Positions 7,722 to 35,400 are shown, numbered from the stretch's first letter. The stretch: 64,000 nt of DNA from Patescibacteria group bacterium (GCA_038062835.1 JBBTWH010000001.1:42982-106981); one strand, 5' to 3'. Translations and numbers: made by a program. Notes: generated by a model from the letters alone, not told the origin.

Positions 7722-7750
7722 ACTATACACAGGCTCAAAAGTTTCATCAA
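7722..7750 (-). promoter_or_regulatory. putative sigma70 promoter for tRNA-Asn (TTGATG-17-TATAGT)
   Basis: On the minus strand it reads TTGATGaaacttttgagcctgtgTATAGT, about 35 nt upstream of the tRNA 5' end. Confidence 0.35.
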
Positions 7751-7845
7751 GGGGCGCGAACAGTATAGGTAAATATGCCATCCTTCACGCAAGACCCTAG
7801 GGAAACCCGCATTTAAGGCGTATACTGCCCGAAAGAACCCTTCCT

Positions 7846-8832: not shown

Positions 8833-8846
8833 TAAAATCAAGGCAT

Positions 8847-10598: not shown

Positions 10599-10612
10599 AC
10601 GATGAGACGAAA

Positions 10613-10644
10613 AGACCCCCGGCGTACGCCGGGGGTTTCGCGTT
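10613..10644. terminator. bidirectional intrinsic terminator (cccccggcg-tac-gccggggg)
   Basis: Perfect 9-bp stem flanked by an A-run and T-run, between convergent genes. Confidence 0.5.
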
Positions 10645-11224: not shown

Positions 11225-11457
11225 GGCGTACCTCCGTTGTTGGAAAGACCGGGATTGATCTGAATCCACCTTACCAAAAGGGCCAGCCTTGGCGACTGGC
11301 CCCTGTGGATAACTACGTCGCTACCGGCCACGCTCCCGCTTAGACACGCTCCGCGGTCTTCGCTCACGCATGGCCGTCGCTCCTCCTTCGCGGCTGGGCA
11401 GGCCCAGCCTTGATGGCGGTTCATGGTGTTCCGCGCCGTCGCGCGGAACGATTTCCT

Positions 11458-18939: not shown

Positions 18940-21018
18940 TCAGGGCTTGAGCATAGCAAGGAACTCCTTCTCGCTCAAGACGGTCGTACCGAGCTTCCGG
19001 GCCTTCTCGGCTTTCGAGCCCGGTTCATCCCCGACCACCACATAGGACGTCTCTTGTCCGACGGATGACGAGACGCGTCCTCCCCGTTCGAGGATCTTAT
19101 CCTTGGCCTCGTCGCGGGAGAGCGACGCGAGCGTCCCCGTCAGCACGAAGACCTTATCCTTGAACGGCTGCGCCGCGGCGCGCCTTGGCCTCTCGATCTC
19201 GACGCCGACTTCGAGCAAGCGCTCGACCTCCCGCGCGCGCCGGGCATCACGGAAGAACGCGTGGACGCTCTCGGCCACGACGTCGCCGATGCCGCGCGCT
19301 GATTTCAGCTCCGGCAGCGGGGCGTCGCGCAGCCTCTCAAGGCTTCTGAATTCACGCGCGAGCTCGACGGCCGTCTCCTCGCCGACATGCCGGATGCCGA
19401 GCGCGAGGATGAAGCGCGCCAGCGTGACCGTTCTGGATGACCCGATCGCTTCGACGAGATTCTTGGCGGAGAGTTCGCCGAAGCCTTCCAGCGATTCGAG
19501 GTCGCCCGGAGCCAGATCGAAGAAGTCCGCTGGCTGCGAGACGAGGCCTTCGGCCATCAGCTGTTCGACGATCTTCCCGCCCAGCCCGTCGATATCGAAG
19601 GCGCGCTTCGAGACGAACAGCAGGAGGCGTCCCAGGTCTTTCGCCGGGCACTCCCGGTTCACGCAGGTGATGGCGACCTCGCCCTCGCGGCGGACGACGC
19701 CTTCGCCGCACGAAGGGCACGTCTTCGGCGCGACGATCTTCTTCTCCTTTCCGCTCCGCAGCTTCGGCAGGGCTTCGACGATCTTCGGGATGACGTCGCC
19801 GGCCTTCTCCAGCACGACGGTGTCGCCGATCCGGACGCCGAGGCGCTCGATCTCATCCATGTTATGCAGGGTCGCGTGGCGTACGGTCGTGCCGGCCACG
19901 AAGACGGGATCCATGACGGCGACCGGCGTGATGGCACCGGTACGGCCGACCTGCCAGCGAACCTCTCGGATGAGCGTCGTGACGGACTCGGCCGGGAACT
20001 TGAACGCGATCATGCCGCGCGGCGCCTTGCCCACGACGCCGAGACGCTCGTACAGCGCGTTGTCGTCCACGCCGACGACAAGGCCGTCGATCCAGTAGTC
20101 GAGTGATTCGCGCTTCTTCGCGACGTTCTCGTAAAGCGCGAAGACGGCCTTCGCGTCCTCGCAGCGGAGGTTCCACGGGTTCGCCTTGAACCCCATGAGC
20201 TTCGCCAGTTCGTGGCCCTGCTCGTGCGTCTTCAAGCCTTCATGCGTGACGAGATCATACGCCTGGAAGGCCAGCTTGCGCGCCGCGGCGATCTTCGGGT
20301 CGAGCTGCCGGATCGAACCGGCCGCGCCGTTGCGCGGGTTCACGATCGGCGGCTCCCCTTTCTTCTTCAAAGCGGCGTTCAGGGATTCGAAGACCTTCTT
20401 CGGCATGTAGACCTCGCCGCGGACTTCCGTACGCGCGGAAAGGAGGCAGGTGACGATCTTCTTCAGCCCGGCTTCGTCCAATCCTCCGCCGAATTTTTTC
20501 AGGAAGCTCCTGAGTTCGGCGTCGGACGGGCGCCGGAGCGCGAGCGGCACCGATTCGATGGTCCGCAGGTTCATCGTGACGTCCTCCCCGACCTTGCCGT
20601 CGCCGCGCGTCGAACCGCGCTTGAAAAAGCCGCCTTCGTATTCCAAAGAGACGGCCAAGCCATCCATCTTCATCTCGGCGTACAGGTCGCTCTTGAAACC
20701 GGGAACGCGGCGCCGCAGCCTTTCGATCCACTCATCGAACTCCTCGCGGCTGAAGACGTCCTCAAGCGACAGCATCGGCCGTCCGTGCGGAACCTTGCCG
20801 AACGTATCGAGCGGCTTTCCGGCTACGCGCTGGGTCGGCGAGTCGGGCGTGACGAGTTCGGGATGCGCCTGCTCGATCTTCCAGAGCTCGTGCTTCAGGG
20901 AATCCAAAGCGCCCTCGGAGACGGGGCTCTCGTCGAGGACGTGCGCGCGATAGCGATAGTCGTCGATGAGCGCGCGCAGCTTCTTGGCGCGTTCCCCGAC
21001 GGTCTTCTTGTCCGTCAT
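18940..21018 (-). CDS. ligA: NAD-dependent DNA ligase LigA
   Basis: Has the KxDG adenylation motif (KMDGLAVSL), an OB fold, a Zn finger (CPSCGEGVVREGEVAITCVNRECPAK), HhH and a C-terminal BRCT domain. The track ORF extends to 21057. Confidence 0.9.
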   Translation of the reverse strand: MTDKKTVGERAKKLRALIDDYRYRAHVLDESPVSEGALDSLKHELWKIEQAHPELVTPDSPTQRVAGKPLDTFGKVPHGRPMLSLEDVFSREEFDEWIERLRRRVPGFKSDLYAEMKMDGLAVSLEYEGGFFKRGSTRGDGKVGEDVTMNLRTIESVPLALRRPSDAELRSFLKKFGGGLDEAGLKKIVTCLLSARTEVRGEVYMPKKVFESLNAALKKKGEPPIVNPRNGAAGSIRQLDPKIAAARKLAFQAYDLVTHEGLKTHEQGHELAKLMGFKANPWNLRCEDAKAVFALYENVAKKRESLDYWIDGLVVGVDDNALYERLGVVGKAPRGMIAFKFPAESVTTLIREVRWQVGRTGAITPVAVMDPVFVAGTTVRHATLHNMDEIERLGVRIGDTVVLEKAGDVIPKIVEALPKLRSGKEKKIVAPKTCPSCGEGVVRREGEVAITCVNRECPAKDLGRLLLFVSKRAFDIDGLGGKIVEQLMAEGLVSQPADFFDLAPGDLESLEGFGELSAKNLVEAIGSSRTVTLARFILALGIRHVGEETAVELAREFRSLERLRDAPLPELKSARGIGDVVAESVHAFFRDARRAREVERLLEVGVEIERPRRAAAQPFKDKVFVLTGTLASLSRDEAKDKILERGGRVSSSVGQETSYVVVGDEPGSKAEKARKLGTTVLSEKEFLAMLKP

Positions 21019-21866
21019 AGGCAGGGCGCTCCGGAAACGCCTTTGAGGAGCGAACATTGGCTGAAGATCACGAAATCGAAGGCGCCCGAAAGCGGCTGAA
21101 GGCGCGGGAGACGGAGCTCCATGGCCTGCCGCGCCGCGCCGTACGTGCCGACCGACTCGACGGCCAGGCGCGACGGGATCGGCACCTGCACGCCGCCGGC
21201 GTCATCGGAACTATACGCCGTGATGGCCAGGTTGAAAATATCGCAGTTCTTCGCGCGCAGTCGCACGCGATATGCCTTCGAGGCCATGAAATCGTCATCG
21301 ATGACCTGGGGCGTGACCCGCAGGAAGGTCAGCGCCGGCGAATCGCCGTGGAACGCGACGTTCGGATCGAATCCGCCCGCCGCCGCCGGGTCCCAGCCGG
21401 TCGCCAACACCTCCAAGCCGGAGGTTCCGCCGCAGACGTCGTCCCAGGCGAAGGTCAGGGACTCCGTGCCGGCGGGGCTCGCGGGCGTCTCCGGATCCCA
21501 CAGCACGACTTCATACGAACGGTCTTCGGGGATGGAGGCGAAAATCGTCGTCTCGGTCGATTCCAGGGCGCGGCTCCAGCGCGCGCCGTTGCCGAGCGGA
21601 ACGCCGGAATCGGTCACCGACGAGTCATGGTTCGGACTCGCGTTCAGCGCGGCGGAACCGGCGCCGACGCGGCGGAGCTGGTAGAGGGTCTGTTCGGCGC
21701 CGGACTCCGCCGCCGCGAAGGCGATGACGGCGTCGTCGATGACGCGAGCCTGCCGCAAGTTCAGCACCGAGATGGTGCCGAGCGAGGCGCCCACGATCAA
21801 GACGCCGCTCATCACGAGGAGCGACATGAGCAGGACGTTCCCTTCGCGGCGAGCGTCAGCGTACAT
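21015..21866 (-). CDS. PilX-like type IV pilus minor pilin/assembly protein
   Basis: N-terminal hydrophobic segment (GNVLLMSLLVMSGVLIVGASLG), PilX_N-like. It is the last gene of the pilus operon. Confidence 0.5.
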   Translation of the reverse strand: MYADARREGNVLLMSLLVMSGVLIVGASLGTISVLNLRQARVIDDAVIAFAAAESGAEQTLYQLRRVGAGSAALNASPNHDSSVTDSGVPLGNGARWSRALESTETTIFASIPEDRSYEVVLWDPETPASPAGTESLTFAWDDVCGGTSGLEVLATGWDPAAAGGFDPNVAFHGDSPALTFLRVTPQVIDDDFMASKAYRVRLRAKNCDIFNLAITAYSSDDAGGVQVPIPSRLAVESVGTYGAARQAMELRLPRLQPLSGAFDFVIFSQCSLLKGVSGAPCL

Positions 21867-22443
21867 ATGAGCGCGCGGCTATGGTCGTCTGGGCGTTCAG
21901 CGTGACGATGTCCTCCGGCCTGCGGCCCTGCGTCCGTACCTTCAACGCCAGGGTCACGGTCGGCTGGGCGTCGGCCTTATAGAGTCCGCTGTCCTCGTCG
22001 ATCGAGAACGGGTCGGCCTGCGGGGTGATGAAAAAGGCGAGGTTCTCGAGGAGGATGCCGGAGGACGTGACGCTCTGCGCGACGCCGTCGACGCGCACGG
22101 CCAGACAACCGGCGACTCCCGCCGGACAGATCGACGGATTCGTCTCCTTGTAGAACTCGAGGCGGGAGCCGGAGGCGCTGCGGATGATGAGGTTCAGGGA
22201 CGGAGCCTGGATGCCGCCGGCGGCCTCGTACGTCTCGTAGTCGATGGACCCGGCACGGACCTCGCGCACGATGCTCTCGAGCGTGAAGCGCAGGTCGGCC
22301 TGCGCCGCCGTGATAGCCAGCACGCGGCGCTGCGCCTGGTTCGAGAGCAGGAAGATGGACGACGTCAAAGCCACCGTCAGGCTGAAGATGCCCATGACGA
22401 CCAGAAGCTCCATCAGGGTGATGCCGCGCGGCGCCGTCTTCAT
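21856..22443 (-). CDS. type IV minor pilin/pseudopilin (PilW-like)
   Basis: Prepilin signal RG|ITLMELLVVMGIFS, with Glu at +5. Confidence 0.6.
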   Translation of the reverse strand: MKTAPRGITLMELLVVMGIFSLTVALTSSIFLLSNQAQRRVLAITAAQADLRFTLESIVREVRAGSIDYETYEAAGGIQAPSLNLIIRSASGSRLEFYKETNPSICPAGVAGCLAVRVDGVAQSVTSSGILLENLAFFITPQADPFSIDEDSGLYKADAQPTVTLALKVRTQGRRPEDIVTLNAQTTIAARSYVR

Positions 22444-22450
22444 AGAGGTT

Positions 22451-23074
22451 TCATCTCCAGTCATAAAGGCGTTCCTCGACGGCCAGCGTCTGCTGCTGTC
22501 CTCCCGCGCCGCGCCAACGGACGGTCGAATAGACCGCCAGGCCCGCCAGCGTCTCGGAACCGAGGCAGGTCGCGGAACTTCCGACGATGCGCTCGACGCC
22601 GGTGCCATCGTCGCGGCAGACGTGTTGGAGCGTCAGGAGGCGCGAGTACGGACTCGCGGCCCCGCCGGTCGGCGGAGTGTCGGCCTGCCGATAGACGCCG
22701 TCGCTCATCAGGTAGACGGCCGCGTTCGCCGCCCCCATCGACGTGGGCTCGAACGAAAGCGTCCAGCTCCCGTTCTCCGTATCAAGCATCGGTCGTGCCG
22801 TCTTGTTGCCGGCACCATCGACCAGTCCGACCTGGAAGCTGCGCCCCATGAGCCAGTTGGTGTCGCGAGCCGCACGTACGACTTCCAAGCCTTCGCGCGC
22901 GAGGTTGGCGGCGATGACCTGCATGCCTCCGACGCGCGTCGCCGTGATGGAGGATTGGATGAGCGCCAGCGAACTCGAAATCGCGGTGATGATCACGGTA
23001 ATCGCCACCATCGCCTCGATGAAGGACTGTCCGCGCCGTGCGCCGTGCGGTGAACGGACGTGCCGCTCAATCAT
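22451..23074 (-). CDS. type IV minor pilin (PilV-like)
   Basis: Prepilin signal RRG|QSFIEAMVAITVI. Confidence 0.6.
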   Translation of the reverse strand: MIERHVRSPHGARRGQSFIEAMVAITVIITAISSSLALIQSSITATRVGGMQVIAANLAREGLEVVRAARDTNWLMGRSFQVGLVDGAGNKTARPMLDTENGSWTLSFEPTSMGAANAAVYLMSDGVYRQADTPPTGGAASPYSRLLTLQHVCRDDGTGVERIVGSSATCLGSETLAGLAVYSTVRWRGAGGQQQTLAVEERLYDWR

Positions 23075-23708
23075 GCTCGATTTTTCCGGAAAGGCGGTAG
23101 ATGGTGACATGGCGGGTCATGTTTCCGAATTGATGGCCGAGCGTCAGCGAAACCGTGGTCGGGCCGGAGTCCGAACCGTTGACGTACAGCTTCCCGAACG
23201 GCGGCGCGTAGACGATATCGAGCGGGTCACCGGAGGGGCTGCCCTGGAAACGCGCCGCCGCAGTCGAAACGTACGGCGCCGCCGCGTACTCCTCGCCCGC
23301 GTCGTACCGCTGGTCGTCGTCGGTGTCGTAGAAGAGAACGTACTCGCTGCTCGCGAGCGTCGAGAAACGGATGCCGTAGCCCGCCGGGACTCGCTTCTGG
23401 CATGATCCTCCGGAGCACGTGACTGCCGGCTGCTTCGGTTCGCACGCGTCGAGATCTTCCGCCCCGCCGCTGCAGACCGCCGCCAACCGGCCGGTCAATG
23501 ACGACGTCTGCACGGCCCGGAGCTGACCGACAAGGATGTCCGCCGCGAGACGCACTTCGGCCGCCTGCTGGCCGCCGCGGAAGTTCGCCATCATCATCCC
23601 CGTCAGCACGCCGATGATGGAAATCGAGACGAGCAGTTCGACCAGCGTGAACCCCCCTGCGCCGACGGCTCGGGGGGCAGGTCCCTTAGAGCGAGAGGAG
23701 CGAAGCAT
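23067..23708 (-). CDS. type IV minor pilin (prepilin-type N-terminal cleavage/methylation domain)
   Basis: GG|FTLVELLVSISIIGVL, the classic GFTLxE motif. Confidence 0.65.
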   Translation of the reverse strand: MLRSSRSKGPAPRAVGAGGFTLVELLVSISIIGVLTGMMMANFRGGQQAAEVRLAADILVGQLRAVQTSSLTGRLAAVCSGGAEDLDACEPKQPAVTCSGGSCQKRVPAGYGIRFSTLASSEYVLFYDTDDDQRYDAGEEYAAAPYVSTAAARFQGSPSGDPLDIVYAPPFGKLYVNGSDSGPTTVSLTLGHQFGNMTRHVTIYRLSGKIEHD

Positions 23709-24456
23709 ACCAGGCCATGATGGACTGGCCGAAGAACAGGGCCAGGAGCGTGCCGACGCTGAGGAAGGTCCCGAACGCCATTTGGCCGCTCCAACGCGCC
23801 TTGCCGGCGGCCAGGAGCCCGAGCGCCGCGACGGCCCCGATGACGTATGACGCGAACAGCGCCAGGATGACGCCGGGGAATCCAAGCATCGCGCCCATCA
23901 TGCCGCCGATGCGGATATCGCCGCCGCCTATCCAGCGTCCGCGCGAGATGACGTACTGGAAAAGGAAGAAGCCCGCCCCCGCGGCGGCGGCCAGGAACAG
24001 ATCGAGCGCGTCGGCCCCCGCCGCCAAGTTGAACAGGAACGCGATGGCGATCATCGGCAGCGTCACCGAATCGAAGACGACCATGTCGCGCAGATCGATG
24101 ACGAAGACGACCGTCAGCGCGGCGATGAAGATCCAATCGCGCAACACGAGCAGGGCGCCGCCGCCCAGTACGCCGGCGTCGCCGCCGCGCAGCCAGAAGG
24201 CGCTCAAGAAGAGAAGCGCCGTCGACAGCTCGACCATCGGATACTGCCAGGATATCGGCTTGCTGCAGGAACGGCAGCGGCCGCGGAGCGCCAGGAAACT
24301 GAAAAGCGGCACGAGCTCGCTCGGGCGCAGGACCGCGTGGCAGTCCGGGCAGCGCGATCGGCTCCGCCAGCCCGTCTCGCCGGACCGCAGCCTTCCGATG
24401 ACGACGTTCAGGAAGCTGCCGATCGCGAGACCGATGAATAAGGCTACGAAGGTCAT
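23686..24456 (-). CDS. pilD: prepilin peptidase (A24 family)
   Basis: Has the GSFLNVVI motif, a CxxC...CxxC zinc site, Asp active sites and eight TM segments. Confidence 0.85.
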   Translation of the reverse strand: MTFVALFIGLAIGSFLNVVIGRLRSGETGWRSRSRCPDCHAVLRPSELVPLFSFLALRGRCRSCSKPISWQYPMVELSTALLFLSAFWLRGGDAGVLGGGALLVLRDWIFIAALTVVFVIDLRDMVVFDSVTLPMIAIAFLFNLAAGADALDLFLAAAAGAGFFLFQYVISRGRWIGGGDIRIGGMMGAMLGFPGVILALFASYVIGAVAALGLLAAGKARWSGQMAFGTFLSVGTLLALFFGQSIMAWYASLLSL

Positions 24457-24459
24457 GCG

Positions 24460-24987
24460 TCAGGGACAAGTTCCGTTCCGAAGCGACGACTGGTCTACCA
24501 TCACCGCTCCGGCTGCCAGTTCGATTTGCGGCAAGCCGCGCTCCAGTGAGGATTGGACGCAATAGCCGAGGCACGGCGCCGTCGTGCAGGTCGAAATGAT
24601 GCCGTTCGTGCTGCGGTACGCATAGGCGGCGCCGTTCGGGGTCGGATTCGCCGGTACGAGGCCCATGTAGACCCTGCCAAGGTCGCAGTTCCCGACGCCC
24701 TGATCCGCGGCGAACGATGCGACGGCGCCCTTCGCGCACAAGACGTCGGTCGTACCGGCGCCGAGCGTCAGAGGAGAAGCCACGACCGGATAACCTGAAC
24801 CCGGCTCGAACGACAGCTCGAGCGCTTTTTGGATCTGCTTCAGGTCAGTCACCCGCTTCTCGTCACGCGCCTTCGCGCGCGCGCCGCCGACTGCGGCGAT
24901 GGTGATAGTGGCCGTGAGGCCGATGATGGCGATGACGATGAGGAGTTCTATGAGCGTGAATCCCCGAAAGCGCTGATGGATCGGCAT
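24460..24987 (-). CDS. type IV pilin (PilA-like paralog 1)
   Basis: RG|FTLIELLIVIAIIG, with a C-terminal Cys pair. Confidence 0.8.
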   Translation of the reverse strand: MPIHQRFRGFTLIELLIVIAIIGLTATITIAAVGGARAKARDEKRVTDLKQIQKALELSFEPGSGYPVVASPLTLGAGTTDVLCAKGAVASFAADQGVGNCDLGRVYMGLVPANPTPNGAAYAYRSTNGIISTCTTAPCLGYCVQSSLERGLPQIELAAGAVMVDQSSLRNGTCP

Positions 24988-25021
24988 GCTTCGCAGTCTA
25001 TGAACAATGCCTACATTATAA

Positions 25022-25054
25022 CACGAAAAGCCCGTCCATGATGGACGGGCTTTC
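25022..25054 (-). terminator. intrinsic terminator after the upstream pilin gene (aaagcccgtccat-c-atggacgggcttt + TCGTGT)
   Basis: A strong hairpin sits immediately downstream of the pilA paralog 2 stop. This is typical of major-pilin attenuation. Confidence 0.5.
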
Positions 25055-25071
25055 CCCGAGTCGACCGAGGC

Positions 25072-25554
25072 TTAGCAGCCCGGGGTCGCATCGTCGGCCT
25101 GAATGCCGTTCTGGTTGGCGCAGTTGGCGCCGGCGCCGAGCTGGCCGGTGGCTCCTTCCAGGCTGAAGGTGATCCAGTACGTGCCCGAGCCGGTGGCGCT
25201 GTTGTAGGTGTACGGCAGGCCGGCGGGGGTCGGGTTCGAGGGGACGAGACCCATGTAGATCGTCGTGCAGTTCGACGTGTCGCCCTGGAACACGGCTCCG
25301 CTGTTGTTGCAGAGGACGTCATCCGCAGCGCCGCCGAGGACGGTGGACGTCTCAGTCGGGTAGTTGTTCGACTCTGAGAACGCGAGCTCGAGGGCGGTCT
25401 GGATCTGGCGGATGTCCGAGACGCGCTTGGCGTCGCGGGAACGCTGGCGGGCGCTGTTAAGGGCGACGACGGCCAGGGTGGAGAGCAGACCGATGATGGC
25501 GATGACCACCAGCAGTTCGATAAGGGTGAAACCCTTGGACTGTGAGCGCTTCAT
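25072..25554 (-). CDS. pilA: type IV pilin (PilA-like paralog 2, probable major pilin)
   Basis: KG|FTLIELLVVIAIIGLLSTLAV. It has its own terminator and an AT-rich upstream region. Confidence 0.8.
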   Translation of the reverse strand: MKRSQSKGFTLIELLVVIAIIGLLSTLAVVALNSARQRSRDAKRVSDIRQIQTALELAFSESNNYPTETSTVLGGAADDVLCNNSGAVFQGDTSNCTTIYMGLVPSNPTPAGLPYTYNSATGSGTYWITFSLEGATGQLGAGANCANQNGIQADDATPGC

Positions 25555-25679
25555 ACCGTTGGAACGAAAGTTTCTAAATGACTAATTAGCATGGGTTCAA
25601 TCGCCTCGTGTCGGCACACGGATATGATGGACTCTTTTCAGAGATTCTTCAAAGCTGATTATCCACAGTCTACCATCTT

Positions 25680-26072
25680 TCAGCGCCTGACGCACGTGAT
25701 GCCGCCTGCTGGACGGACTTCGCACGCGCCTCCCGGCAGGGTGCCGACGCGCCCCTCGAGCGTGAAGCGCAGTACGTAGGAACGGCATGTCTCTGAGGCA
25801 TCCGGCGCGCAGCCTGCCGGTTCCGCCCGGTATTCGAACGCTTCCGCGAGTCCCGCGTCGTCGGCCGGCAGATCCGCGGCGGCGCCGGGGTACGAAGCCG
25901 TCATCGCACGGTATGTCTCGACGGCCGCCTGCGCCTGCCGCGCCGCGGAGACGACCGCGCCGTCGCGCTCGCGGCGCCGTGCGTCGAGGACGCCGAGCAG
26001 CATCGGGACTCCGAGAAGCAGGATGACTCCGGCAGCCACCAGGATTTCCGCGAGCGTCATGCCTTTGCGCAT
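25680..26072 (-). CDS. pseudopilin / minor pilin
   Basis: KG|MTLAEILVAAGVILLL prepilin-like N-terminus. Confidence 0.5.
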   Translation of the reverse strand: MRKGMTLAEILVAAGVILLLGVPMLLGVLDARRRERDGAVVSAARQAQAAVETYRAMTASYPGAAADLPADDAGLAEAFEYRAEPAGCAPDASETCRSYVLRFTLEGRVGTLPGGACEVRPAGGITCVRR

Positions 26073-26077
26073 ATGGT

Positions 26078-27286
26078 TCACATCTGTTGAGCGAGGCTGT
26101 ACATCGGAAGGATGATGGCCATCACGAGCGCGCCGACGGCGACGCCCATCACGATCATGATGATAGGCTCGATGGCGGTAGAGAGCGTCGAGACGGCGGC
26201 GTTCACCTCGCGCGTGTAGAAATCGGTCAGTCGGGAAAGCACCTGCTGCAATTTTCCGGTTTCCTCCCCGATCGAGATCATCTGGGTGACCATGTCCGGG
26301 AATTCCTTGCGGCCCTTCAGCGAGCCGGCCATGGTGTTGCCCGCCGAGACTTCCTGGACCGTCAGGACGAGGCCTTCGCGATAGGTCTCGTTGCCGACCA
26401 CGCCGGCGACGACCTTGAGGCTCGTAACCAGGTCGACGCCGCCTTCGATGAGCGTCGAGAGGCTGTGCGTGATGCGCGTGATATAGATCTTGCGGAAAAG
26501 CGCGCCGAATACCGGGATACGGAGCAGGACCCCGTCGAGGAATCGCTTGCCTCCGGGCGTACGATAGGCAGTCCTCACTCCGACGACGGCACCGAGCGCG
26601 CCGCCGACGATGACGTACCAGTATTTCACGAAGAAATCGCTCACGTTCACCAGGATCCTGGTGGCGAGCGGCAGATCGGCGCCGCTCTCGCGCAGGACTG
26701 CCGTCAGCTTCGGCACCACGAAAATCATCATCACGGTTCCTACGATGAAGAGCATGATGACGACGATGATCGGATACGTCATGGCGCCCTTCACGCGGCG
26801 ACGCAGATCGAGATCCTTTTCCTGCTGGTCGGCCAGATAGTGCAGGACCTCGTCGAGCTTGCCTGAAGTCTCGCCCGAACGGAGCATGTTCACGTAGAAC
26901 GACCCGAAGACGTGGGGGTATTTGGCGAACGCGTCGGAGAGCCTGACTCCGCCTTCGACCTCGTTGGCGATATCAAGGACGATGCCATGGAGCTTCGGAC
27001 TCACGGTCTGCCGCGCGGCGGTGCGCAGCGACCGCACGATGGAGATCGAAGCGCCGACCATCACCGAAAGCTGGCGCGAGAAGATGACGATGTCCTCGAC
27101 CTTGACCCGCTGGAGGAACGTGAATCTGAGGTTGCCGATCGAGGTCGCCTCGCGCTCATCGACGCCCATGACCTGATAACCGCGCTCACGAAGCACGTCG
27201 CCGGCCTGTCCGGCGTCGGCCGCTTCCACAGCGCCTTCAAGATCGCGGCCCCGGGAGTCCTTGACCTTGTAGCTGAAGATCGGCAT
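26078..27286 (-). CDS. pilC: type IV pilus inner-membrane platform protein (GspF family)
   Basis: Two T2SSF domains and three TM segments. Confidence 0.9.
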   Translation of the reverse strand: MPIFSYKVKDSRGRDLEGAVEAADAGQAGDVLRERGYQVMGVDEREATSIGNLRFTFLQRVKVEDIVIFSRQLSVMVGASISIVRSLRTAARQTVSPKLHGIVLDIANEVEGGVRLSDAFAKYPHVFGSFYVNMLRSGETSGKLDEVLHYLADQQEKDLDLRRRVKGAMTYPIIVVIMLFIVGTVMMIFVVPKLTAVLRESGADLPLATRILVNVSDFFVKYWYVIVGGALGAVVGVRTAYRTPGGKRFLDGVLLRIPVFGALFRKIYITRITHSLSTLIEGGVDLVTSLKVVAGVVGNETYREGLVLTVQEVSAGNTMAGSLKGRKEFPDMVTQMISIGEETGKLQQVLSRLTDFYTREVNAAVSTLSTAIEPIIMIVMGVAVGALVMAIILPMYSLAQQM

Positions 27287-27345
27287 GGGGAGGTCTGAGC
27301 GTTGAGGTTTGAGGTCTGACGTTAACCCTCAGACCTCAAACCTTA

Positions 27346-27744
27346 TTACTTCAGGTTGAGGATCTTCTTCACTTTCTTGACCGCTTCTCCGGGGACGAAG
27401 TGCGCCTTGATGAGGTAATCGACCGCGCCTTCCTTGAGGCAGCGCTCGACGTCTTCCTTCTGGCCGAGGTTCGTGAGCATCACGACGGGAATCTGCATCA
27501 GTTTCGGATCGAGCTTGAGGCGGTGCAGCATCTCGAAACCGTCCATTTTCGGCATGAGGATGTCGAGCAGGATGATATGGGGCGAGTGCTTCTCGGCCAG
27601 CTTCAAGCCCTGCTCGCCGTCGGCGCCGTGCAGGACGGTGAAACCTTCCAATTCAAATTTCGTGGCGTAGACGCTCGCCAGGAAGGAGTCGTCTTCGACC
27701 AGCAGTATCTTGACCTCGCTCAGGTTCGTCGGCATATGCATCAT
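27346..27744 (-). CDS. single-domain response regulator (CheY-like receiver, PilH-like)
   Basis: Has KILLVEDD, the phospho-acceptor Asp (ILLDILMP) and a conserved Lys. Confidence 0.8.
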   Translation of the reverse strand: MMHMPTNLSEVKILLVEDDSFLASVYATKFELEGFTVLHGADGEQGLKLAEKHSPHIILLDILMPKMDGFEMLHRLKLDPKLMQIPVVMLTNLGQKEDVERCLKEGAVDYLIKAHFVPGEAVKKVKKILNLK

Positions 27745-29495
27745 TCTCTCGCGAGACGGAGCACTTCGTCAACCGTCGTGGCGCCTTCGATGACCTTGAG
27801 CATCGCGTCCTGGCGCATGGTGATCCAGCCCTGCCTCCTCACTTCCTCCCTGACCTTATCGACAGGAAAGCCCTCGTTCATCATCTTCTGGATTTCCGCG
27901 TTGACGCTGATGAGCTCGGCGATGACCGTGCGGCCGGCGTAGCCCGTGTCGCTGCAGCGCAGGCAGCCCTTGCCCTTCTTGAACGGCAGCGGTCCTTCAA
28001 GCGTGAAGCCTTTCGGCAAGTATTCAGCGGGGACGTCCTTGAGGGCGTCGCGGACCATCAGGGCCGCGTTCTCCGGGACTTCCGCGTCCGTCTTGCAGTG
28101 CTCGCAGATCTTGCGGGCCAAGCGCTGGGCGATGATGAGATTGAGCGTCGCCGAAAGGAGGAACGGCTCGACGCCGAGATCGGTCAGGCGCGGGATGACG
28201 CCGATGGCGTCGTTGGTATGGATGGTGGTCAGGATCAGGTGGCCGGTAAGAGCCGCATGGACGCCGAGTTCGCCGGTCTCCTGGTCGCGGATCTCGCCGA
28301 CCATGATGACGTTCGGGTCCTGGCGCAGAAGGGCGCGCAAGCCGTTGGCGAAGGTGAACTTGATCTCCGGCTTGATCTGCGACTGGTTGATGCCGGGCAG
28401 GAAGTATTCGACGGGGTCCTCGAGCGTCGAGATGTTGACGCCCTCGTCGTTGATCATGCCGAGCATGGTGAGAAGCGTCGTCGACTTTCCCGAACCGGTC
28501 GGACCGGTGATCAGGATCATGCCGTGCGGTTTCTTGATCTCGGACTGCACGGCGTCGCGATACTTCTTGCGGAACCCAAGGCCTTCGAGCGTCGGCACGC
28601 CGGTGGAAGTGTCAAGCACGCGCATGACGACTTTCTCGTTGTCGACGACGGGGAGCGTCGAGATGCGGAAGTCGATGTTCTTGCCGTTGATGACCTGGGT
28701 GATGCGGCCGTCCTGAGGGACGCGCGTCTCGTCGAGCTTCAGGTTCGCCAGGACCTTCACGCGCGAAACGACCGCCGAGTGCAGGTAGGCCGGCAGGGTC
28801 AGCAGGGTGCGGAGCACGCCGTCGATACGGTAGCGCACGCGCGTCTCCTTGCCCTTCGGTTCGATGTGAATGTCGGAAGCCTTGGATTCCACCGCGTAGC
28901 GCATCACCACCGAGACGATGCGCGATACCGGCGCGCCCTTGATGACTTCCTCGATCTTGGATTCCTCGCCTTTCAGGTCCTCATCCTCCGCCTCTTCCTG
29001 CTCCTGCTCGGCCGTCACCAGGGCTTCGCCGACCTCCTTCTTGAACGCGCCGTATTGCTTGATGATGGCGATGGCCGCGTTCTGGGTGGTCACGGATGGC
29101 ACGGCCGTCATGTTGCGCTCGGCCATCAGGAACCCGACGGCTTCGGCGGCGGCGGAGTTGAGCGGGTCGACGTATGCGACCTTCAGCGTCGTCCCCTGCT
29201 GTTCGTAGGAGATCACCTGGTACGTTTCGGCGACCGTCTTCGGGATGATGTTAAGCGTGTCCTGATCGATCTGGCGGCCGGCCAGGTCCACGAACTCAAG
29301 ACCGAGGCCCTCGGCTTTCGCGCGCGCGAGGTCCTCTTCCTGCACCAGGCGCCGCTCCAATAGGACGCGTTCGAGCGCCTCGGCGTCCTGTCCGGCGAAC
29401 TCCGTAGCCAGCGCCACGAAGGTCTCCTTGCTGAGTTTTCCTTGACCCGCCAGCAGTTCGAGAAGGCCGGCAGCGGTCTTGAGGGCGACGGCCAT
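27741..29495 (-). CDS. pilB: type IV pilus assembly ATPase (GspE family)
   Basis: Has an N-terminal GSPII_E domain, Walker A (GPTGSGKST), Asp and His boxes, and a tetracysteine. Confidence 0.9.
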   Translation of the reverse strand: MAVALKTAAGLLELLAGQGKLSKETFVALATEFAGQDAEALERVLLERRLVQEEDLARAKAEGLGLEFVDLAGRQIDQDTLNIIPKTVAETYQVISYEQQGTTLKVAYVDPLNSAAAEAVGFLMAERNMTAVPSVTTQNAAIAIIKQYGAFKKEVGEALVTAEQEQEEAEDEDLKGEESKIEEVIKGAPVSRIVSVVMRYAVESKASDIHIEPKGKETRVRYRIDGVLRTLLTLPAYLHSAVVSRVKVLANLKLDETRVPQDGRITQVINGKNIDFRISTLPVVDNEKVVMRVLDTSTGVPTLEGLGFRKKYRDAVQSEIKKPHGMILITGPTGSGKSTTLLTMLGMINDEGVNISTLEDPVEYFLPGINQSQIKPEIKFTFANGLRALLRQDPNVIMVGEIRDQETGELGVHAALTGHLILTTIHTNDAIGVIPRLTDLGVEPFLLSATLNLIIAQRLARKICEHCKTDAEVPENAALMVRDALKDVPAEYLPKGFTLEGPLPFKKGKGCLRCSDTGYAGRTVIAELISVNAEIQKMMNEGFPVDKVREEVRRQGWITMRQDAMLKVIEGATTVDEVLRLARE

Positions 29496-29503
29496 GAGTA
29501 TCG

Positions 29504-29755
29504 TCAGTATGGTTCAAAAGGATTGTCGCGTCCCGTGCGCCCTGGGACGAGCGGGAGCTCGACCGGCAAGCGTAGCCGCGCATATTCCGGATGTTCCATG
29601 ACGGCCCTGGGGATGGAGGCGTCGACCGCCTTGGGCTGGTACGGAACCACGGTCAGTTTTTCCGGCGAAAAGACGAAAATGCCGAGCACGATGACGATGG
29701 CCGCCACGATGCCGCCGAGCAGGATCATCTGTTTCTGGCTTTTCTTCAGGTTCAT
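29504..29755 (-). CDS. small membrane-anchored pilus-operon protein
   Basis: 83 aa with a single N-terminal TM segment. It lies between pilO and pilB and overlaps the pilO stop. Confidence 0.45.
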   Translation of the reverse strand: MNLKKSQKQMILLGGIVAAIVIVLGIFVFSPEKLTVVPYQPKAVDASIPRAVMEHPEYARLRLPVELPLVPGRTGRDNPFEPY

Positions 29756-30339
29756 AGGCGTGCCGTCGGTTTGCCCGCAGTCCAGACGTAGGCGCGGATC
29801 GTCAGGCCGTAGCTCGCGCCCAGCGGATTGATGCTGGCGCTGCGGACGTCGAACAATCGGAGGTTGGATTCGAGGCCTTCGAGGAACAGCTTGAAGCGCT
29901 GATAGTTGCCGTGCTGGAGCGAGACGGCGATATTAAGCGCCCCGAGCCCTTGCACCCCCGGCAGACCCGTCATGTCGCCGGCGGCGAAGTTGATGGACGT
30001 AAGCTGAAGGTCGCTGGAGCGCGCGGCGGCCTCGAATATCGCCAAGAGACCCGGCGTGTCCTCCTCTGTCGGTATCATCGCGCGGATGCGTTCGACGTCC
30101 TCGGCGTCATACGAGTCGTACGCCGCCTTCAGCTCGTCCAGCTTCTTGAGATACGCCTCCTTAGCGAGACGCTCTTCCTGCAGCCGCATCGTGCGATCCG
30201 CTTGTCGGATACGCGCGAATTCCGGACGGAAGACGAACAGGAAACCGAGGCCAAGGAGGACGGCGACGAGCGCTGAGCCGGCCGGCAGGAGATTCTTGCC
30301 GATCCAGACGAGCGCCTTGCTTTGAGAAAATGAAGCCAT
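29752..30339 (-). CDS. pilO: PilO-like pilus assembly protein
   Basis: N-terminal TM segment, a coiled coil and a periplasmic domain. Sits between pilN and pilB. Confidence 0.6.
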   Translation of the reverse strand: MASFSQSKALVWIGKNLLPAGSALVAVLLGLGFLFVFRPEFARIRQADRTMRLQEERLAKEAYLKKLDELKAAYDSYDAEDVERIRAMIPTEEDTPGLLAIFEAAARSSDLQLTSINFAAGDMTGLPGVQGLGALNIAVSLQHGNYQRFKLFLEGLESNLRLFDVRSASINPLGASYGLTIRAYVWTAGKPTARL

Positions 30340-30340
30340 A

Positions 30341-31282
30341 TCAAGGCGCAGTTTCAGACGCGGCCGCTTCCGCCTTGAAATCGAAGATGGCGGGATCGAC
30401 CGTCAGCGTCATCGACGTGCGCGCGCCCTTCAGGAGGTCGTTCTCCGCGAAATCAGCGGAGGCCGTTCCGGCCGTGACCTTCCGCACGCGGGGGTCTTCG
30501 CGGAAGGCGATGATCTGCTTGGCCAGGGTCGTGTAATCGCTGGCGCGCACCTCGAAGCTTAGCGTGCCCGTATCGGCGCCGGCCAAGCTTCCGAACTGTA
30601 CGTTGGGAAGCGCGCGCTCTTCCATGAGCTTCAGGACCTGCGTCCAATGTTCGTGGTTCTCGAGCACGACGGCGGCGGTCTTGACGAGTCCCTGGAAATC
30701 GCGCACGGGCACGAGCGCGGATTCGCGGGCGGAAATCTGCGCGTCCATGTCGCGGACCGAGAGCTCGGCCTGCGCGTCGCGCTTCTCGACGACGGAGCGG
30801 TAGTACGCCAGGCCGCCATAGATCAGGCCGTCGAGCACGATGCCGAGCAGTCCGATCAGCGCGAAGGTCCTGAGCCGGCGGCGCAGGGCGACCTCGGACA
30901 TGCCGGCGCCGCCGCCCGAGGTGATGAGGCTGACGCGCAGCGTGTCGCTCCCCTTCTCTTCCTGAGGTTTAGGAGAAGGCGGCAGAGGCGATTTCGGAGG
31001 TGGCGTCGCGGCTGGCTTCGGCGGCGGGGGGAGCGGGGGCGTGGGCGGCTTCGGAGCCGCCGGTTTCGGCGGGAGCGCAGGGACCTTCTGGCTCAAGAGA
31101 GACGCTGCGGGGGCAGCGGCAAGCTTCGGCGGCGGAGCGGGGGCGGCGACTTTCGGTTCCGGGACGTCCGGGAGAGGCTCCGGTACGTGCAACGCCAACT
31201 CATCGGCGAGCGGCTTCGCGCCGCCCGCGGACTTTTCATCCTTGCGGGCGCCCGGCTCCGATAGGAAGTTGATGTCGCTCAT
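30341..31282 (-). CDS. pilN: PilN-like pilus assembly protein with Pro-rich N-terminal region
   Basis: Pro/Ala/Lys-rich low-complexity region, then a TM segment and a PilN-like domain. Immediately downstream of pilM. Confidence 0.6.
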   Translation of the reverse strand: MSDINFLSEPGARKDEKSAGGAKPLADELALHVPEPLPDVPEPKVAAPAPPPKLAAAPAASLLSQKVPALPPKPAAPKPPTPPLPPPPKPAATPPPKSPLPPSPKPQEEKGSDTLRVSLITSGGGAGMSEVALRRRLRTFALIGLLGIVLDGLIYGGLAYYRSVVEKRDAQAELSVRDMDAQISARESALVPVRDFQGLVKTAAVVLENHEHWTQVLKLMEERALPNVQFGSLAGADTGTLSFEVRASDYTTLAKQIIAFREDPRVRKVTAGTASADFAENDLLKGARTSMTLTVDPAIFDFKAEAAASETAP

Positions 31283-31291
31283 AGCGTCGCG

Positions 31292-32350
31292 CTAATCGAT
31301 GTCGCGCATGGCGAGCCCGACGGACACGCCGAACCGCGATCCGATCTGGTTGAGGACGGGACGCAGGGCCTCCGGATAGACCACGCGCGCCCAGGGATCT
31401 CCGACGTAGACGCGGAGGCTCATCGCTTTCGCGAGATAGTCGGCGAGCTGCGGCAGGAGCGCTCCGCCGCCGGTCAGGATGATCTTGTCGAGACGCTTGT
31501 CCTGGTTGGTCTTCTGGCCGAGGAACAGGTTCGTGGAATACGTGAGCTCCGTCAGGATCGGCGCGAAAACCTTCTCGAAGAGCTTGGGGAAACCGGCGTT
31601 ATACATCGACGCCATGGAAGCCGCGTCGATCTTCATGCTCTCGGCCTGGTCCACCGGCACGCCGAGGGCGGCGGACATCTCCTTGGTGACCGTCAGTCCT
31701 CCGAGCGAGACGGAGCGGCTGACGAACGGGATGCCGTGTTCGACGATCATGATGTTGGTGCGGAGCGTGCCGATGTCCAGGACCAGCGTCGGCGACTTGT
31801 CGCGCCCGATGAGAGAACGGATCATCGCCAGGGCCTCCGTCTCGAGGCTCGTCAGCTCGAGCCCGGCCGCGTTGAAGATGTCGGAATACTTCTTGATGAG
31901 GGACTTGGCGGCGCCCGTCAGCAGGATCTGGACGTATTTATCGTCAGGGCTCTGAGGGCCGACGGTGACCGGCTTCCAATCGACGGTCATCTCCTCGATC
32001 GGAAGCGGGATGAGCTTCTTGGCCTGCCACATGACCGCCTGCTCGAGATCCTCGCGCTTGGCGGTCTTCTGCACGCTGATGATGGAGCTGAATACCGAAG
32101 AAATCGGAAGGGCCGAGACGGCCTTGCGGCTGGTCGTCTTGGCCTTCTTGAGCATCTTTTTAAGGAGGTCGGCGGTGCCGGCAGCGTCGTCGATGTAGTT
32201 GCGCGTCATCTCGTCTACAGGACGGTCGACGAACGCGTAGGTCATGAGGCGCGCACGCCCCTTCTCGTTCAAGAGCTCGACGAGCTTCACGCCGCCGCCG
32301 CCGAAATCGATTCCGAGATAGCTGGGTCTTGATTGGCCGAACAATGCCAT
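31292..32350 (-). CDS. pilM: type IV pilus assembly protein PilM (actin-like ATPase fold)
   Basis: Has YLGIDFGGGGVKLVEL. GAGGAGG SD lies upstream. Confidence 0.85.
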   Translation of the reverse strand: MALFGQSRPSYLGIDFGGGGVKLVELLNEKGRARLMTYAFVDRPVDEMTRNYIDDAAGTADLLKKMLKKAKTTSRKAVSALPISSVFSSIISVQKTAKREDLEQAVMWQAKKLIPLPIEEMTVDWKPVTVGPQSPDDKYVQILLTGAAKSLIKKYSDIFNAAGLELTSLETEALAMIRSLIGRDKSPTLVLDIGTLRTNIMIVEHGIPFVSRSVSLGGLTVTKEMSAALGVPVDQAESMKIDAASMASMYNAGFPKLFEKVFAPILTELTYSTNLFLGQKTNQDKRLDKIILTGGGALLPQLADYLAKAMSLRVYVGDPWARVVYPEALRPVLNQIGSRFGVSVGLAMRDID

Positions 32351-32378
32351 ATCCTCCTCAGTGAATAGGTTCCTTCTC

Positions 32379-32393
32379 AGTATACCACACCGG
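32379..32393 (-). promoter_or_regulatory. extended -10 promoter TGgTATACT for the pilM operon
   Basis: On the minus strand it reads gtgTGGTATACTgagaagg, 35 nt upstream of ATG with an SD between. Confidence 0.4.
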
Positions 32394-32433
32394 CCTAAAC
32401 CCGCCTTACCGCGTCGTTCGCGAACGACGCGGC

Positions 32434-35400
32434 TTATCGCCCGGCGGTCGAACGGAAGCCTGGGAGCGAGCGGGTGGCGTCCGAAAGGCCCGGCGGGGGG
32501 TTCAGGATGACGCGGGCATCGAAGATGACGCGCTCGGAGCCTGAGGTGCGCGAGGCGTATTCCCGCTTGAACTCGAACTTCTTGGCGACGAACACGCCGG
32601 TGGCCTCGAACGGCGTCGTGCCGCCTCCGGTGTCGATCGTCTCCTCCGCGAAGAACGCGCCGACGGAACGATTGACCGTGGGGCCGACGTAGACATTGCC
32701 GCCGCCGGCGCCGTCTCTGAGCACGATCCAGCCGATCGAGGCCAGGTTCTTCAGGTCGCTCTCGTTGCGGTCCTGGTAGGTCAGGTCGCCGTCGATGACG
32801 AGGTCGCCTTTCACGATCACGAGGCCGTTGGCTCGCGCCGCTCCGGACGAGTTCTTGAACTCGATCGGCGCGCCGATCGTCAGCCCGGACGGGAAGTAAT
32901 AGATCTTGCCGTCGAGCCGGTCAGGCAACGAGCCTGGCTGCAGCAGCGCGCCGTACTTGCCGTTCAGGATGCCGTTCACGTCGATCGCGCCGAAGGAACC
33001 GACGTAGTTCTTCTCCGGCTTGGGAATCTCGTAGACGGTGGATCCTGACAATGCGCAGCCGAGCTCGCTCGTGAAGTTGGTGATGAGGCCGCCCGACTGC
33101 AGACAGTAGGTGGCGTTGTAGATGGGCGGCGCCTCCCCCGCCTGGATCTCGCCGCCGGAATAGACCTGTCCGGAAACGGTCTCGACGAACGGTTTCACGA
33201 GCGCCTTGCATTCGTTCGAGAGGCAGTCCGCGTTCGAGAAGCAGCAGCTGCCCTCGTCCGGAGCGCCTGCGCCGCAGGCGCCCCAGTCGAGACTGCAGAC
33301 GCCGATGGCGGAAGTGACCGGCGGCGAGCAGTCCGCATCGACGGCGCAGTTCACGGTGCACATCGGCTGGTCGACGATCACGCACAGGTCATCGCCCGCG
33401 CAGTCCGTATCCGCGGAACAGACGCCGCCGGGGGTGAGGTCGTCAGGAGATTCGCCGCAGTACTTGTATTTGCAGCGTCCGACGAGCCCGGCTTCGCAGG
33501 AATCTCCGATGCCGTTGGCGTTCTCGTCGCGCTGATTGGGATTATGGAAGTTGATGCAGTTGTCGCAGGCGCGCGGGAACGGCGCCCCGAAATACGTCGG
33601 CGTCGGCGGCGAGGCGTAGCCCGTCGGGGTGAAGCGTCCCTCGGGCGTCCCATCGACATCGACGTCGGCGTCCGCGCACGCGCCGGTGCCGACGTCGGCG
33701 TTCTCGCACTTCAGGAACGACTGCGCGTTGGAACGCACGATGTCGCCGCTCGAGTCGGTCGCCTCGACGAAAATCCAATAGCGGCCAGCCGCCAGGGCTG
33801 CCGGCACCGCGTAGACGCCCTGGCATGTCAGGGTCGTGCCGAGCGCGGTCGGGATCATCGTGGCCGTGCCTGCGATGCCGCCGACCCAATCCTGGTCGTA
33901 GACGTAGACGCGGCAGGTCGCGACGACCGGGAAGGTGCTGAGCGTGTCGGTGCGGAACTTGGTCGTCAGGCTGACGTCCTCGGTCCCGCGGTAGGTGAGG
34001 ACGGTCGAGCCGTTGACGTCCGTGCCGAGCACGAGGTTCTCGTCGACCGACGGGACGACGTTGACGTCGATCGTCTGCGTCGAAGTCGCGCTCACGTTGG
34101 CGGCGCCGTCGAGCGCCGCGGCGGCGATGTCGTACGCGGCGTTGTCGTTGGCGAACGGTCCGACCGTCGCGACGCAGTTGCCGTCCGGCGAGGTATAGCC
34201 CGCGCCTTCGAGATCGAACTCGCAACGGCAGATGCCGGACGGGTCGGCGTTCGGCGTCGCCTGGAGGCGGACGGTGGCGCCGACGGGCACGCTGACCTTG
34301 CCCGCCACGATGCCCTCGACCTCGACCGCCGGAGCCGGCAGGGTCGGGGCAGAATGTTCAAAGACCTGCACCGACGGCGTCGCCTCGCCGAACTCGACGG
34401 AGCCGGAGCGGTTCGCGACGGTCGAGATCTTGTAGTCCTCAGGGCCGAGCGGTACGGCCGAAGAGCTTGCGCAGCTCAGCGTCACGTCGAATCCGGCGAC
34501 CGTCTCTCCGTATTTCTCCGTGATGACGCCCACGCCGGAAGAAGGGCTGGCGTACTGCAGTTGCGAAGCGCCCGCGCCGGAAAGCGAACAGTTGCCGGCG
34601 CCGGCGTCGAACGGGAATGCGTTGGCGGCCACGGCACCGTCGCCGATGACGATGGTGAGCGAGGTGTAGCTGCCCGAGCCGGTGAAGCGGATGCGGTAGG
34701 CGGAACTCGCGTAGATACGGTCGTCATGGGCATAAAGCGTGTTGCCGCCGGAGACGATCGGCGCGAGCGCGGTCGTATGCGGCACGTCGGGACAGCTCGC
34801 CGCCAGGGTCCAGCCGCCGGCGCCCGGACGCTGCTTGCACTGGACGCCGTCCTGACAAGCCGCGTCGAAGCAATCGGCGCCGGCGTCCGAATCGTTGTTC
34901 GCTCCGTCGTGACAGGTGACCGCGCCGGACTCCGCGCCGCAGAAATAGGGGCTGGACGCGACGGAGCCTACGGTCGGCCCGTGCCGCTGGGCCGGAGCCG
35001 TGCAGCCGACGTCGGCGCAGTCTATCTGGCCGTCGCCGTCGTTATCGATGCCGTCGCCGCAATAGTCCGCGTCGTTCTCGGAGGCGGAGCAGATGGCGAC
35101 GTCGGTGGCGAGCGTCGCGTACTGGGATCCGCAGGCGGACGTCGTGCAGCCCGAGCGTCCGATCTTGCGGTTCGCGCGGCATTCTGCGTCCGCGCAGTCG
35201 ATCACGGTATCGAGATCGTCGTCCACGGCGTCGCTGCATGAAAGGAACGTGTAGTCCTCCTGGCCGGGACTTGGTCCGCACTGGCCGAAAACGTTCCGGC
35301 AGTCTGGATCGAACTCGTCGATCAGCGCGTTGCCGTCGTTGTCGATGCCGTCGTCGCAGAGATTGAAATAGAAGGCGGGCAGGACCGTGCCGTCGCCGAG

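Follow-up and report, generated by a model that had tools for sequence, protein, structure and literature searches.

What kind of machine do pilus genes build when no secretin gene stands among them, and how might its motor be controlled? This question is raised by a 64-kb stretch of DNA (hereafter the window; G+C ~64%) from a Patescibacteria group bacterium (GCA_038062835.1, JBBTWH010000001.1:42982-106981), in which a dense string of genes on the minus strand, from position 21015 to 32350, encodes the components of a type IV pilus (T4P). Open reading frame (ORF) calls combined with searches of Pfam, NCBIfam, and the Protein Data Bank (PDB) put names to most of these genes, and by extending the source contigs ~8–9 kb beyond either end of the window we inspected ~80 kb overall. 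The explanation that we favor, with a probability of roughly 0.8, is that the cluster encodes a type IVa-like pilus of groundwater Patescibacteria (the candidate phyla radiation, CPR), suited to an envelope that has no outer membrane. For CPR bacteria, which are ultra-small and depend on hosts, the pilus is the best candidate among organelles for locating partner cells or DNA, keeping hold of them, and feeding on them, and to our knowledge the CPR pili studied by experiment come from Saccharibacteria only.

Assembly machinery and class of the system

The extension ATPase PilB (27741–29495; this and all other features of the cluster lie on the minus strand) combines a T2SSE domain (1.3e-123) with an MshEN domain. 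All four of its characteristic motifs were found, namely the Walker A motif at residue 331, the Asp box at 396, the His box at 417, and the tetracysteine motif CEHC/CLRC. In the PDB comparison the best match is Geobacter PilB (1.7e-120), and the solved type IVa PilB/PilF proteins of Geobacter, Thermus, and Myxococcus score between 1e-113 and 1e-120, as compared with ~1e-100 for GspE and 1e-35 for PilT. The platform protein PilC (26078–27286) has two T2SSF domains (9e-62) and four predicted transmembrane (TM) segments. The prepilin peptidase/N-methyltransferase PilD (23686–24456) matches A24_N_bact (1.2e-29) and Peptidase_A24 (3.6e-13), and has an N-terminal Cys-rich domain and the motifs CPDC/CRSC and GGGD. 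These features of PilB, PilC, and PilD are the ones by which type IVa pili (T4aP) are recognized.

The alignment genes lie upstream of pilB. PilM (31292–32350), the actin-like ATPase of the alignment complex, matches PilM_2 over its full length (1.1e-43). PilO (29752–30339) matches Pfam PilO at E 7.7e-4, which is below the cut-off; a profile built from 25 orthologues retrieves Myxococcus xanthus PilO from the PDB at 1.1e-9, and 23 of these 25 sequences match Pfam PilO. The product of the gene between them (30341–31282) is PilN-like in its position and topology, carrying the DINFL motif at its N-terminal end, a linker rich in Pro, a single TM segment, and a periplasmic domain. This protein by itself has no Pfam match, two of its 26 orthologues match Pfam PilN, and the top PDB match of the orthologue profile is M. 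xanthus PilN at E 0.026, and we regard the assignment as PilN, made from sequence, as marginal. With that qualification on PilN, the PilM-PilN-PilO subcomplex of T4aP is encoded here.

Given the presence of PilM and PilO and a PilB nearest to the type IVa PilB proteins, we classify the machine by its sequences as type IVa-like, and as neither a ComG competence pilus nor a type II secretion system (T2SS). A ComG-type machine was rejected on the presence of PilM and PilO and on the behavior of the ComG models of NCBIfam, which match only the N-termini of the pilins and do so below cut-off; ComG systems have no PilMNO and use ComGA/ComGB. A T2SS was rejected as well, with no GspD secretin, GspC, GspL, or GspM encoded in the window. 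No Pfam family of the secretin PilQ, of PilP, of TsaP, or of a pilotin was found among the scanned window ORFs, and the ~8–9 kb past each window end encode no secretin, PilT, or histidine kinase. By Pfam, the rest of the window ORFs are housekeeping only (sigma-70, DnaG, Lgt, GatCA, RecJ, LepA, MurJ, acetate kinase, Pta, POR, and Era among them). An earlier reading of this DNA, made from the sequence alone (the sequence-only reading), had listed the minus-strand genes and their order, and every gene is present as it stated by ORF, Pfam, NCBIfam, and PDB evidence; its observation that pilQ, pilP, pilT, and tsaP are missing from the locus also held in Pfam and tblastn searches of the window. The reading had further described the pilus as a secretin-less CPR or monoderm type that is competence-pilus-like. 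Relatives and published loci bear out the first description, and the second falls with the presence of PilMNO and a type IVa PilB.

Scanning one genome per GTDB species yielded 80 loci (referred to by L numbers where they have to be told apart), and gene order was compared by running all window proteins against them with tblastn; the synteny counts given below refer to the 39 loci with a PilB identity of ≥45% unless another total is stated. The nearest loci, whose taxonomy was checked, belong to metagenome-assembled genomes (MAGs) of Patescibacteria, Uhrbacteria, and Ca. Paceibacter. PilB identity is 89–90% in the two closest MAGs, one of which is a Ca. Paceibacter sp., 76–80% in the next clade, which includes the complete 1.17-Mb genome CP129476, and 47–58% in many Uhrbacteria-like MAGs. 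The whole gene order recurs in ~40 Patescibacteria loci, mostly Uhrbacteria-like (PilB identity 47–90%), as secreted protein, pilM-N-O, small protein, pilB, receiver, pilC, one to four pilA, pilD, three minor pilins, a 283-aa protein, ligA, and gatC. The contig of the window derives from groundwater filtrate of Hainich, where contigs from well H41 (fractions of 0.1 and 0.2 µm) carry the PilB protein. The 283-aa protein has 100% identity with NCBI AAB554_00365, annotated as a hypothetical protein of a Patescibacteria group bacterium. It should be mentioned that many MAGs assembled under Third Party Annotation that carry the locus (L001, L006–L011, and others) are titled "uncultured Gammaproteobacteria bacterium". 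The gene content and the relatives are patescibacterial, and the title seems to be either a placeholder or an error of labeling.

Secretin-less T4P loci of CPR have ample documentation, and the sequence-only reading was right about a kind of system that is already known. The locus itself adds nothing new in kind, secretin-less pili having been published for Saccharibacteria and Microgenomates. PilQ is expected to be absent from CPR, and a complete Microgenomates genome carries pilins, PilD, PilB, PilT, PilC, and PilM at a single locus with no pilQ (PMC7143001); a single-locus layout of PilB, PilC, PilM(NO), PilD, and several pilins without PilQ, which we find here in a Patescibacteria genome, is also present in L001–L043. 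Hainich Patescibacteria show enrichment of PilC, PilM, and PilO (PMC8672522). Two pili of Saccharibacteria have been studied experimentally (PMC11623550), and roles in host binding and twitching are described for secretin-less CPR pili (PMC11623550, PMC7143001). These two pili, T4P-1 and T4P-2 of TM7x (Nanosynbacter lyticus), resemble the present system in having PilB, PilC, PilM/N/O, PilD, at least five pilins with paralogous major pilins, and no secretin, as well as a large terminal "PilX" that has a beta-sandwich/jelly-roll head and no canonical PilD signal (PMC11623550). They differ in that locus one has PilT and that no receiver is described between pilB and pilC (PMC11623550), and the pilins of TM7x and of the window cannot be aligned past the N-terminus. 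In the Saccharibacteria locus of our own set (L055), a receiver-like match is located upstream, on the opposite strand, and the interval from pilB to pilC has none.

Compared with the T4aP of M. xanthus, Pseudomonas aeruginosa, and Thermus thermophilus, the locus has a PilB with the same MshEN-type N-domain and the same tetracysteine, Asp, and His boxes, and it shares PilC, PilD, PilM-N-O, and class III pilins; four candidate minor pilins occupy the positions of FimU-PilV-PilW-PilX. It differs from them in lacking PilQ, PilP, TsaP, PilF/PilW, and PilY1, and PilT at the locus, and in containing three extras: an embedded receiver, a mini-protein with a GxxNPF motif, and a secreted beta-solenoid protein encoded upstream. 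The T4P of Gram-positive bacteria (Clostridium perfringens) and ComG are similar to it in that assembly is secretin-less and takes place across a single membrane and wall, and a PilB of the cyclic di-GMP/MshEN type is reported in Clostridium (cited in PMC11656802).

Pilins and operon layout

Six proteins have the class III signal G↓(F/M/I/Q)xxxE, where the arrow marks the cleavage site: a 133-aa pilin-like protein, two PilA paralogues, and three minor pilins. As in T4aP, the class III assignment is given by this motif and by N_methyl/TIGR02532 matches. The 160-aa PilA (25072–25554; MKRSQSKG↓FTLIE; N_methyl 4.7e-9), whose best PDB matches are the N-termini of Geobacter pilin and PilA, is encoded behind its own AT-rich leader of 125 nt and is followed by an intrinsic terminator, identified from the sequence and by folding. 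The terminator hairpin (25025–25055) has a 14-bp stem and a folding energy of -29.2 kcal/mol (z = -4.76; 0 of 200 shuffles as stable), and is succeeded by the U-rich tail UUUUCGUGUU and a TATAAT box (25015–25020) before the second pilA gene, confirming the separate pilA terminator that the sequence-only reading had proposed. The paralogue of 175 aa (24460–24987; G↓FTLIE; N_methyl 9e-8) is 45% identical to the 160-aa protein, and the latter is likely the major pilin. The gene of the 133-aa protein (25680–26081; MRKG↓MTLAE; weak N_methyl and IV_pilin matches) overlaps the pilC stop codon by 4 nt, and in tblastn of the loci the protein is detectable in the close clade L001–L008 only.

Downstream of pilD, four further pilin-like genes occupy the order FimU/GspH, PilV/GspI, PilW/GspJ, PilX/GspK, with family scores below cut-off; the coordinates of the minor pilins rest on the starts that are likely to be real. 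Minor pilin 1 (23067–23711; GAGG↓FTLVE; N_methyl 2.7e-5) has a GspH/FimU-like N-terminus and matches NCBIfam GspH at 5e-7, over its N-terminal part only and below cut-off. Minor pilin 2 (22451–23074; RRG↓QSFIE) has the class III motif and is PilV-like, matching type_IV_pilV of NCBIfam at 4.8e-4, again below cut-off. Minor pilin 3 (21856–22443; MKTAPRG↓ITLME) has the motif together with an N_methyl match of 4.5e-4. The fourth product is the 283-aa protein in the PilX/GspK position (21015–21866), which has a TM segment at residues 11–29 and neither a G↓xxxxE motif nor Glu5. GspK, too, is a protein without Glu5. The match of the 283-aa protein to PilX_N is weak and below cut-off (E 0.54, or 0.0097 in one orthologue). 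Its AlphaFold2 (AF2) model, of medium confidence (pLDDT 61), has an N-terminal helix of 57 residues and a beta-sandwich head, for which the best fold matches are jelly-roll P-domains. In its beta-jelly-roll head and its lack of a PilD signal, the protein resembles PilX1 of TM7x (PMC11623550).

In most cases, neighboring pilus genes share 4 nt or lie within a few nucleotides of each other. At the downstream end, the last pilus stop codon (TGA) overlaps the ATG of ligA as ATGA (21015–21018), which agrees with the sequence-only reading that the operon ends at ligA. The ligA gene follows the gene of the 283-aa protein in 24 of 25 loci, and the pilus-ligA-gatC adjacency is conserved. Because of this overlap and this adjacency, ligA and gatC, which are housekeeping genes, appear to share a transcript with the minor pilins. 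In the window, gatC and gatA come after ligA, downstream to 17182. At the upstream end, the reading had drawn the limits of the system at 21015–32400. The pilus genes do occupy 21015–32350, and the conserved block runs on to 38051, taking in two genes of secreted proteins that had been omitted. The region before pilM (32351–32433), as read from the sequence, contains a palindrome with an 11-bp stem (-24.8 kcal/mol, z = -2.0), an extended -10-like element TGGTATACT, and a GAGGAGG ribosome-binding site, and is a candidate promoter. Direct reading and folding were used for these elements, because a scan with consensus promoters and terminators gave counts not above those in shuffled sequence and missed the pilA terminator.

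The embedded receiver and other conserved partners

Between pilB and pilC lies a stand-alone CheY-like receiver (27346–27744), which is joined to the pilB stop codon by a 4-nt overlap of the ATGA type. It matches Response_reg at 9e-24 and receiver domains in the PDB down to 3e-20. The receiver fold of a CheY-like response regulator is recognizable by its acidic DD pocket, phospho-acceptor Asp, Thr, and Lys, and the DD pair, Asp61, Thr90, and Lys112 are kept in the orthologue alignment, L005 excepted. Of the 39 loci, 37 have the gene in this interval, and its orthologues are 50–68% identical in most Uhrbacteria-like loci, as against ~45% for PilC. Distant lineages (L025, L039, L041, and L090) have pilB-pilT-pilC or pilB-pilC with no receiver. 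A second, weak receiver-like tblastn match in the window (61452–61565) was discarded as a response regulator, lying inside a tRNA (uracil-5) methyltransferase gene.

Receivers are connected with pilus motors elsewhere. Phosphorylated PixG binds PilB1 as well as PilC's N-terminus in Synechocystis (PMC11181946), and PilG and PilH steer the localization of PilB in P. aeruginosa (PMC11656802, PMC10519157). With PilG/PilH of the Chp system and PixG/PixH of the Tax1 system, the present protein shares the receiver, the intact phospho-acceptor pocket, and the genetic tie to the T4P motor. It differs in being a bare receiver inside the core operon with no PATAN domain, and in that no CheA-like kinase, methyl-accepting chemotaxis protein, or other chemosensory gene lies nearby. 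The stand-alone receivers of Synechocystis are reported not to bind the motor (PMC11181946).

The same interval holds the retraction ATPase in some relatives. A PilT-like ATPase of 344–357 aa follows the receiver directly in three of the 39 loci (L035, 12234–13268; L036, 12175–13248; L043, 12042–13115) and in the unrelated contig L089 (8499–9584), giving the order pilB-REC-pilT-pilC. Because these distant relatives hold PilT between the receiver and pilC, the sequences suggest that the window clade and the Uhrbacteria-like genomes have lost or relocated pilT. In the window itself, tblastn with PilB as the query gave no further ATPase of the PilB/PilT type over its 64 kb, and none was found in the flanks of ~8–9 kb. 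The claim of the sequence-only reading that the operon is complete accordingly holds for assembly and fails for retraction. A profile of five CPR PilT proteins collected 7,880 PilT-like clusters and, among the matches listed, none is tied to the AAB554 MAG or to CP129476.

Between pilO and pilB, an 83-aa protein (29504–29755) has one TM segment and an invariant C-terminal G-x-x-N-P-F motif. A small GxxNPF ORF takes this place in 31 of the 39 loci, and the protein has no Pfam match and, by orthologue profile, no PDB match. PilP has an R(D/S)PF motif, which is the origin of the idea that the small protein might be a truncated PilP; this identification was rejected, as Pfam (E up to 10) and the PDB search with the orthologue profile returned TM-helix noise only. 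A PilP-like role for the protein would be a guess from its position.

Two genes upstream of pilM encode secreted proteins that are probably pilus-linked accessory proteins. The first (36630–38051; 473 aa) has a Sec-type N-terminal signal and GWAW...GWI repeats, and its first ~200 aa are homologous (31–39% identity) to the N-terminus of a ~650-aa protein of the Uhrbacteria-like loci. The second (32434–36633; 1399 aa) contains 68 Cys residues, repeats of the form CxDGxDNDxDxxxDCxDxxC, and a C-terminal beta-solenoid domain. The single ~650-aa protein of the Uhrbacteria-like loci holds both the N-terminal module and the C-terminal module of ~300 aa, which in the window clade are divided between the two adjacent genes. 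Neither of these proteins nor the Uhrbacteria homologues have Pfam or NCBIfam matches. In 32 of 36 loci, and in three distant contigs besides (L088–L090), the sequence encoding the C-terminal domain directly precedes pilM; in L009–L078 it lies ~600–2,300 bp upstream of pilM. The family ends in NPPPG(L/F)xD...LP and comprises 1,710 clusters at 50% identity (E ≤1e-3), in which the domain is always C-terminal. An AF2 model of the 310-aa C-terminal segment is beta-rich, with confidence good at about residues 130–260 and falling to ~60–75 up to residue 300. In the fold comparison of this model, the beta-solenoid of Thermus ComZ ranks first (probability 0.96, E 6e-3, TM-score 0.22), and the matches that follow are the ice-binding beta-helices of DUF3494. 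The fold match to ComZ is weak, and the genomic linkage of the secreted family to pilM is strong. We found no description of the embedded receiver, the GxxNPF protein, or the upstream secreted family in the literature searched. The comparison shows a pilus operon of fixed layout shared by a large environmental group of CPR bacteria, with a CheY-like regulator built in and two conserved partners that are uncharacterized; the three are testable candidates for how cells lacking both a chemosensory system and an outer membrane control and aim their pili.

Working model, alternatives, and neighboring genes

In the type IVa-like pilus that we propose, PilD would cleave and probably N-methylate the six prepilins at their class III signals. 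A PilB hexamer docked on the PilC platform would drive the insertion of pilins into the fiber, with the 160-aa PilA probably the main subunit and the 175-aa paralogue an alternative one. PilM would bind the cytoplasmic N-terminus of the PilN-like protein, and the alignment complex in the membrane would consist of PilN, PilO, and probably the 83-aa protein with the GxxNPF motif. Priming of assembly would fall to the four pilin-like proteins encoded downstream, in their GspH/I/J/K-like order, and these would finish at the tip. The receiver, being translationally coupled to pilB, probably tunes or switches the motor through phosphorylation-dependent binding to PilB and/or PilC, and also to PilT where PilT is present. 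Such a pilus would need no secretin. By analogy, its most likely use would be to attach the cell to a host or a surface, with the uptake of DNA as a further possibility, and the two functions put forward in the sequence-only reading are plausible on the same ground.

Several points weigh against this model. No retraction ATPase is encoded within ~80 kb, and the assignments of PilN, PilV, PilW, and PilX combine weak scores with gene position. The pilus of this organism is known here from its genes alone. As for the receiver, no HisKA, HATPase, or CheA family was detected by Pfam in the window or its flanks, and the orthologue in L005, the complete genome CP129476.1, has its phospho-Asp region deleted; the alignment of L005/L082 (L082, 4347–4718) reads LLGA-----EH at this place, and Pfam Response_reg no longer matches. 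The gene is retained and may encode a pseudo-receiver. Because the phospho-Asp region has been lost there, phosphorylation is not essential in every lineage.

The absence of PilT from the locus and from the ~80 kb around it bears most directly on a variant in which the pilus is non-retractile and purely adhesive, PilT having been lost from the lineage and the receiver gating assembly only. The relatives that keep PilT between the receiver and pilC, and hence suggest its loss or relocation, fit this variant, and locus two of TM7x also has no retraction ATPase (PMC11623550). However, the ~80 kb inspected are to be set against 1.17 Mb for the complete related genome, PilT is reported to be widely conserved across the Patescibacteria phyla (PMC11623550), and PilT-like clusters are abundant in the profile search. 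We therefore treat a pilus that cannot retract as a tentative option, the less probable side of the question. A dedicated competence pilus, whose fiber and tip would capture extracellular DNA for a nucleotide-auxotrophic cell, appears unlikely to us. DNA uptake has been proposed for CPR pili (PMC7143001, PMC8672522), the cluster appears to share one transcription unit with ligA, and the solenoid of the upstream protein best matches ComZ, the DNA-receptor pilin at the tip of the Thermus pilus. That match is weak by its E value and TM-score, however, and beta-solenoids readily match one another; no comEA, comEC, or dprA was found in the window or its flanks, and the machinery with PilMNO and PilB is type IVa-like rather than ComG-like. 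Uptake of DNA and a function in adhesion or motility do not, moreover, exclude each other.

It is very improbable that the genes build a T2SS-like pseudopilus that pushes proteins through the wall without forming a surface fiber. Such a device could claim the best NCBIfam matches of the pilins, which are the N-termini of GspG and GspH, and the large secreted proteins encoded next door, but the Gsp matches are below cut-off and confined to the N-terminal helix that all these proteins share. The Gsp components named above are missing from the window, PilM and PilO are present, PilB scores above GspE in the PDB comparison, and pili are visible on CPR cells (PMC11623550). Within the type IVa-like reading, a more specific idea, which we consider speculative and on balance doubtful, is that the T4P of Uhrbacteria-like genomes, this one included, form a distinct subtype in which the receiver switches PilB, and PilT where it is present, on PilC, the GxxNPF mini-protein replaces PilP, and the secreted family with the ComZ-like solenoid docks on the pilus or its tip. 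If this were the case, the solenoid family would be a host-adhesion or DNA-receptor module with a role like that of PilY1 or ComZ.

Elsewhere in the window, two large putative surface proteins are encoded at 52932–54863 (minus strand) and 8541–10598 (plus strand); one of them contains a right-handed beta-helix, NosD, and bacterial TSP3 repeats, and the other a Big_5 Ig-like domain. In L088, a Kerfeldbacteria contig (DOSP01000096), pilM and a gene of 178 aa are followed by at least four tandem paralogues of ~530 aa (5130–11378), which occupy the usual place of pilO and pilB. Three of the paralogues match a treble-clef zinc finger (zf_Tbcl), and a zf_Tbcl_2 protein is encoded in the window too, at 432–1109.

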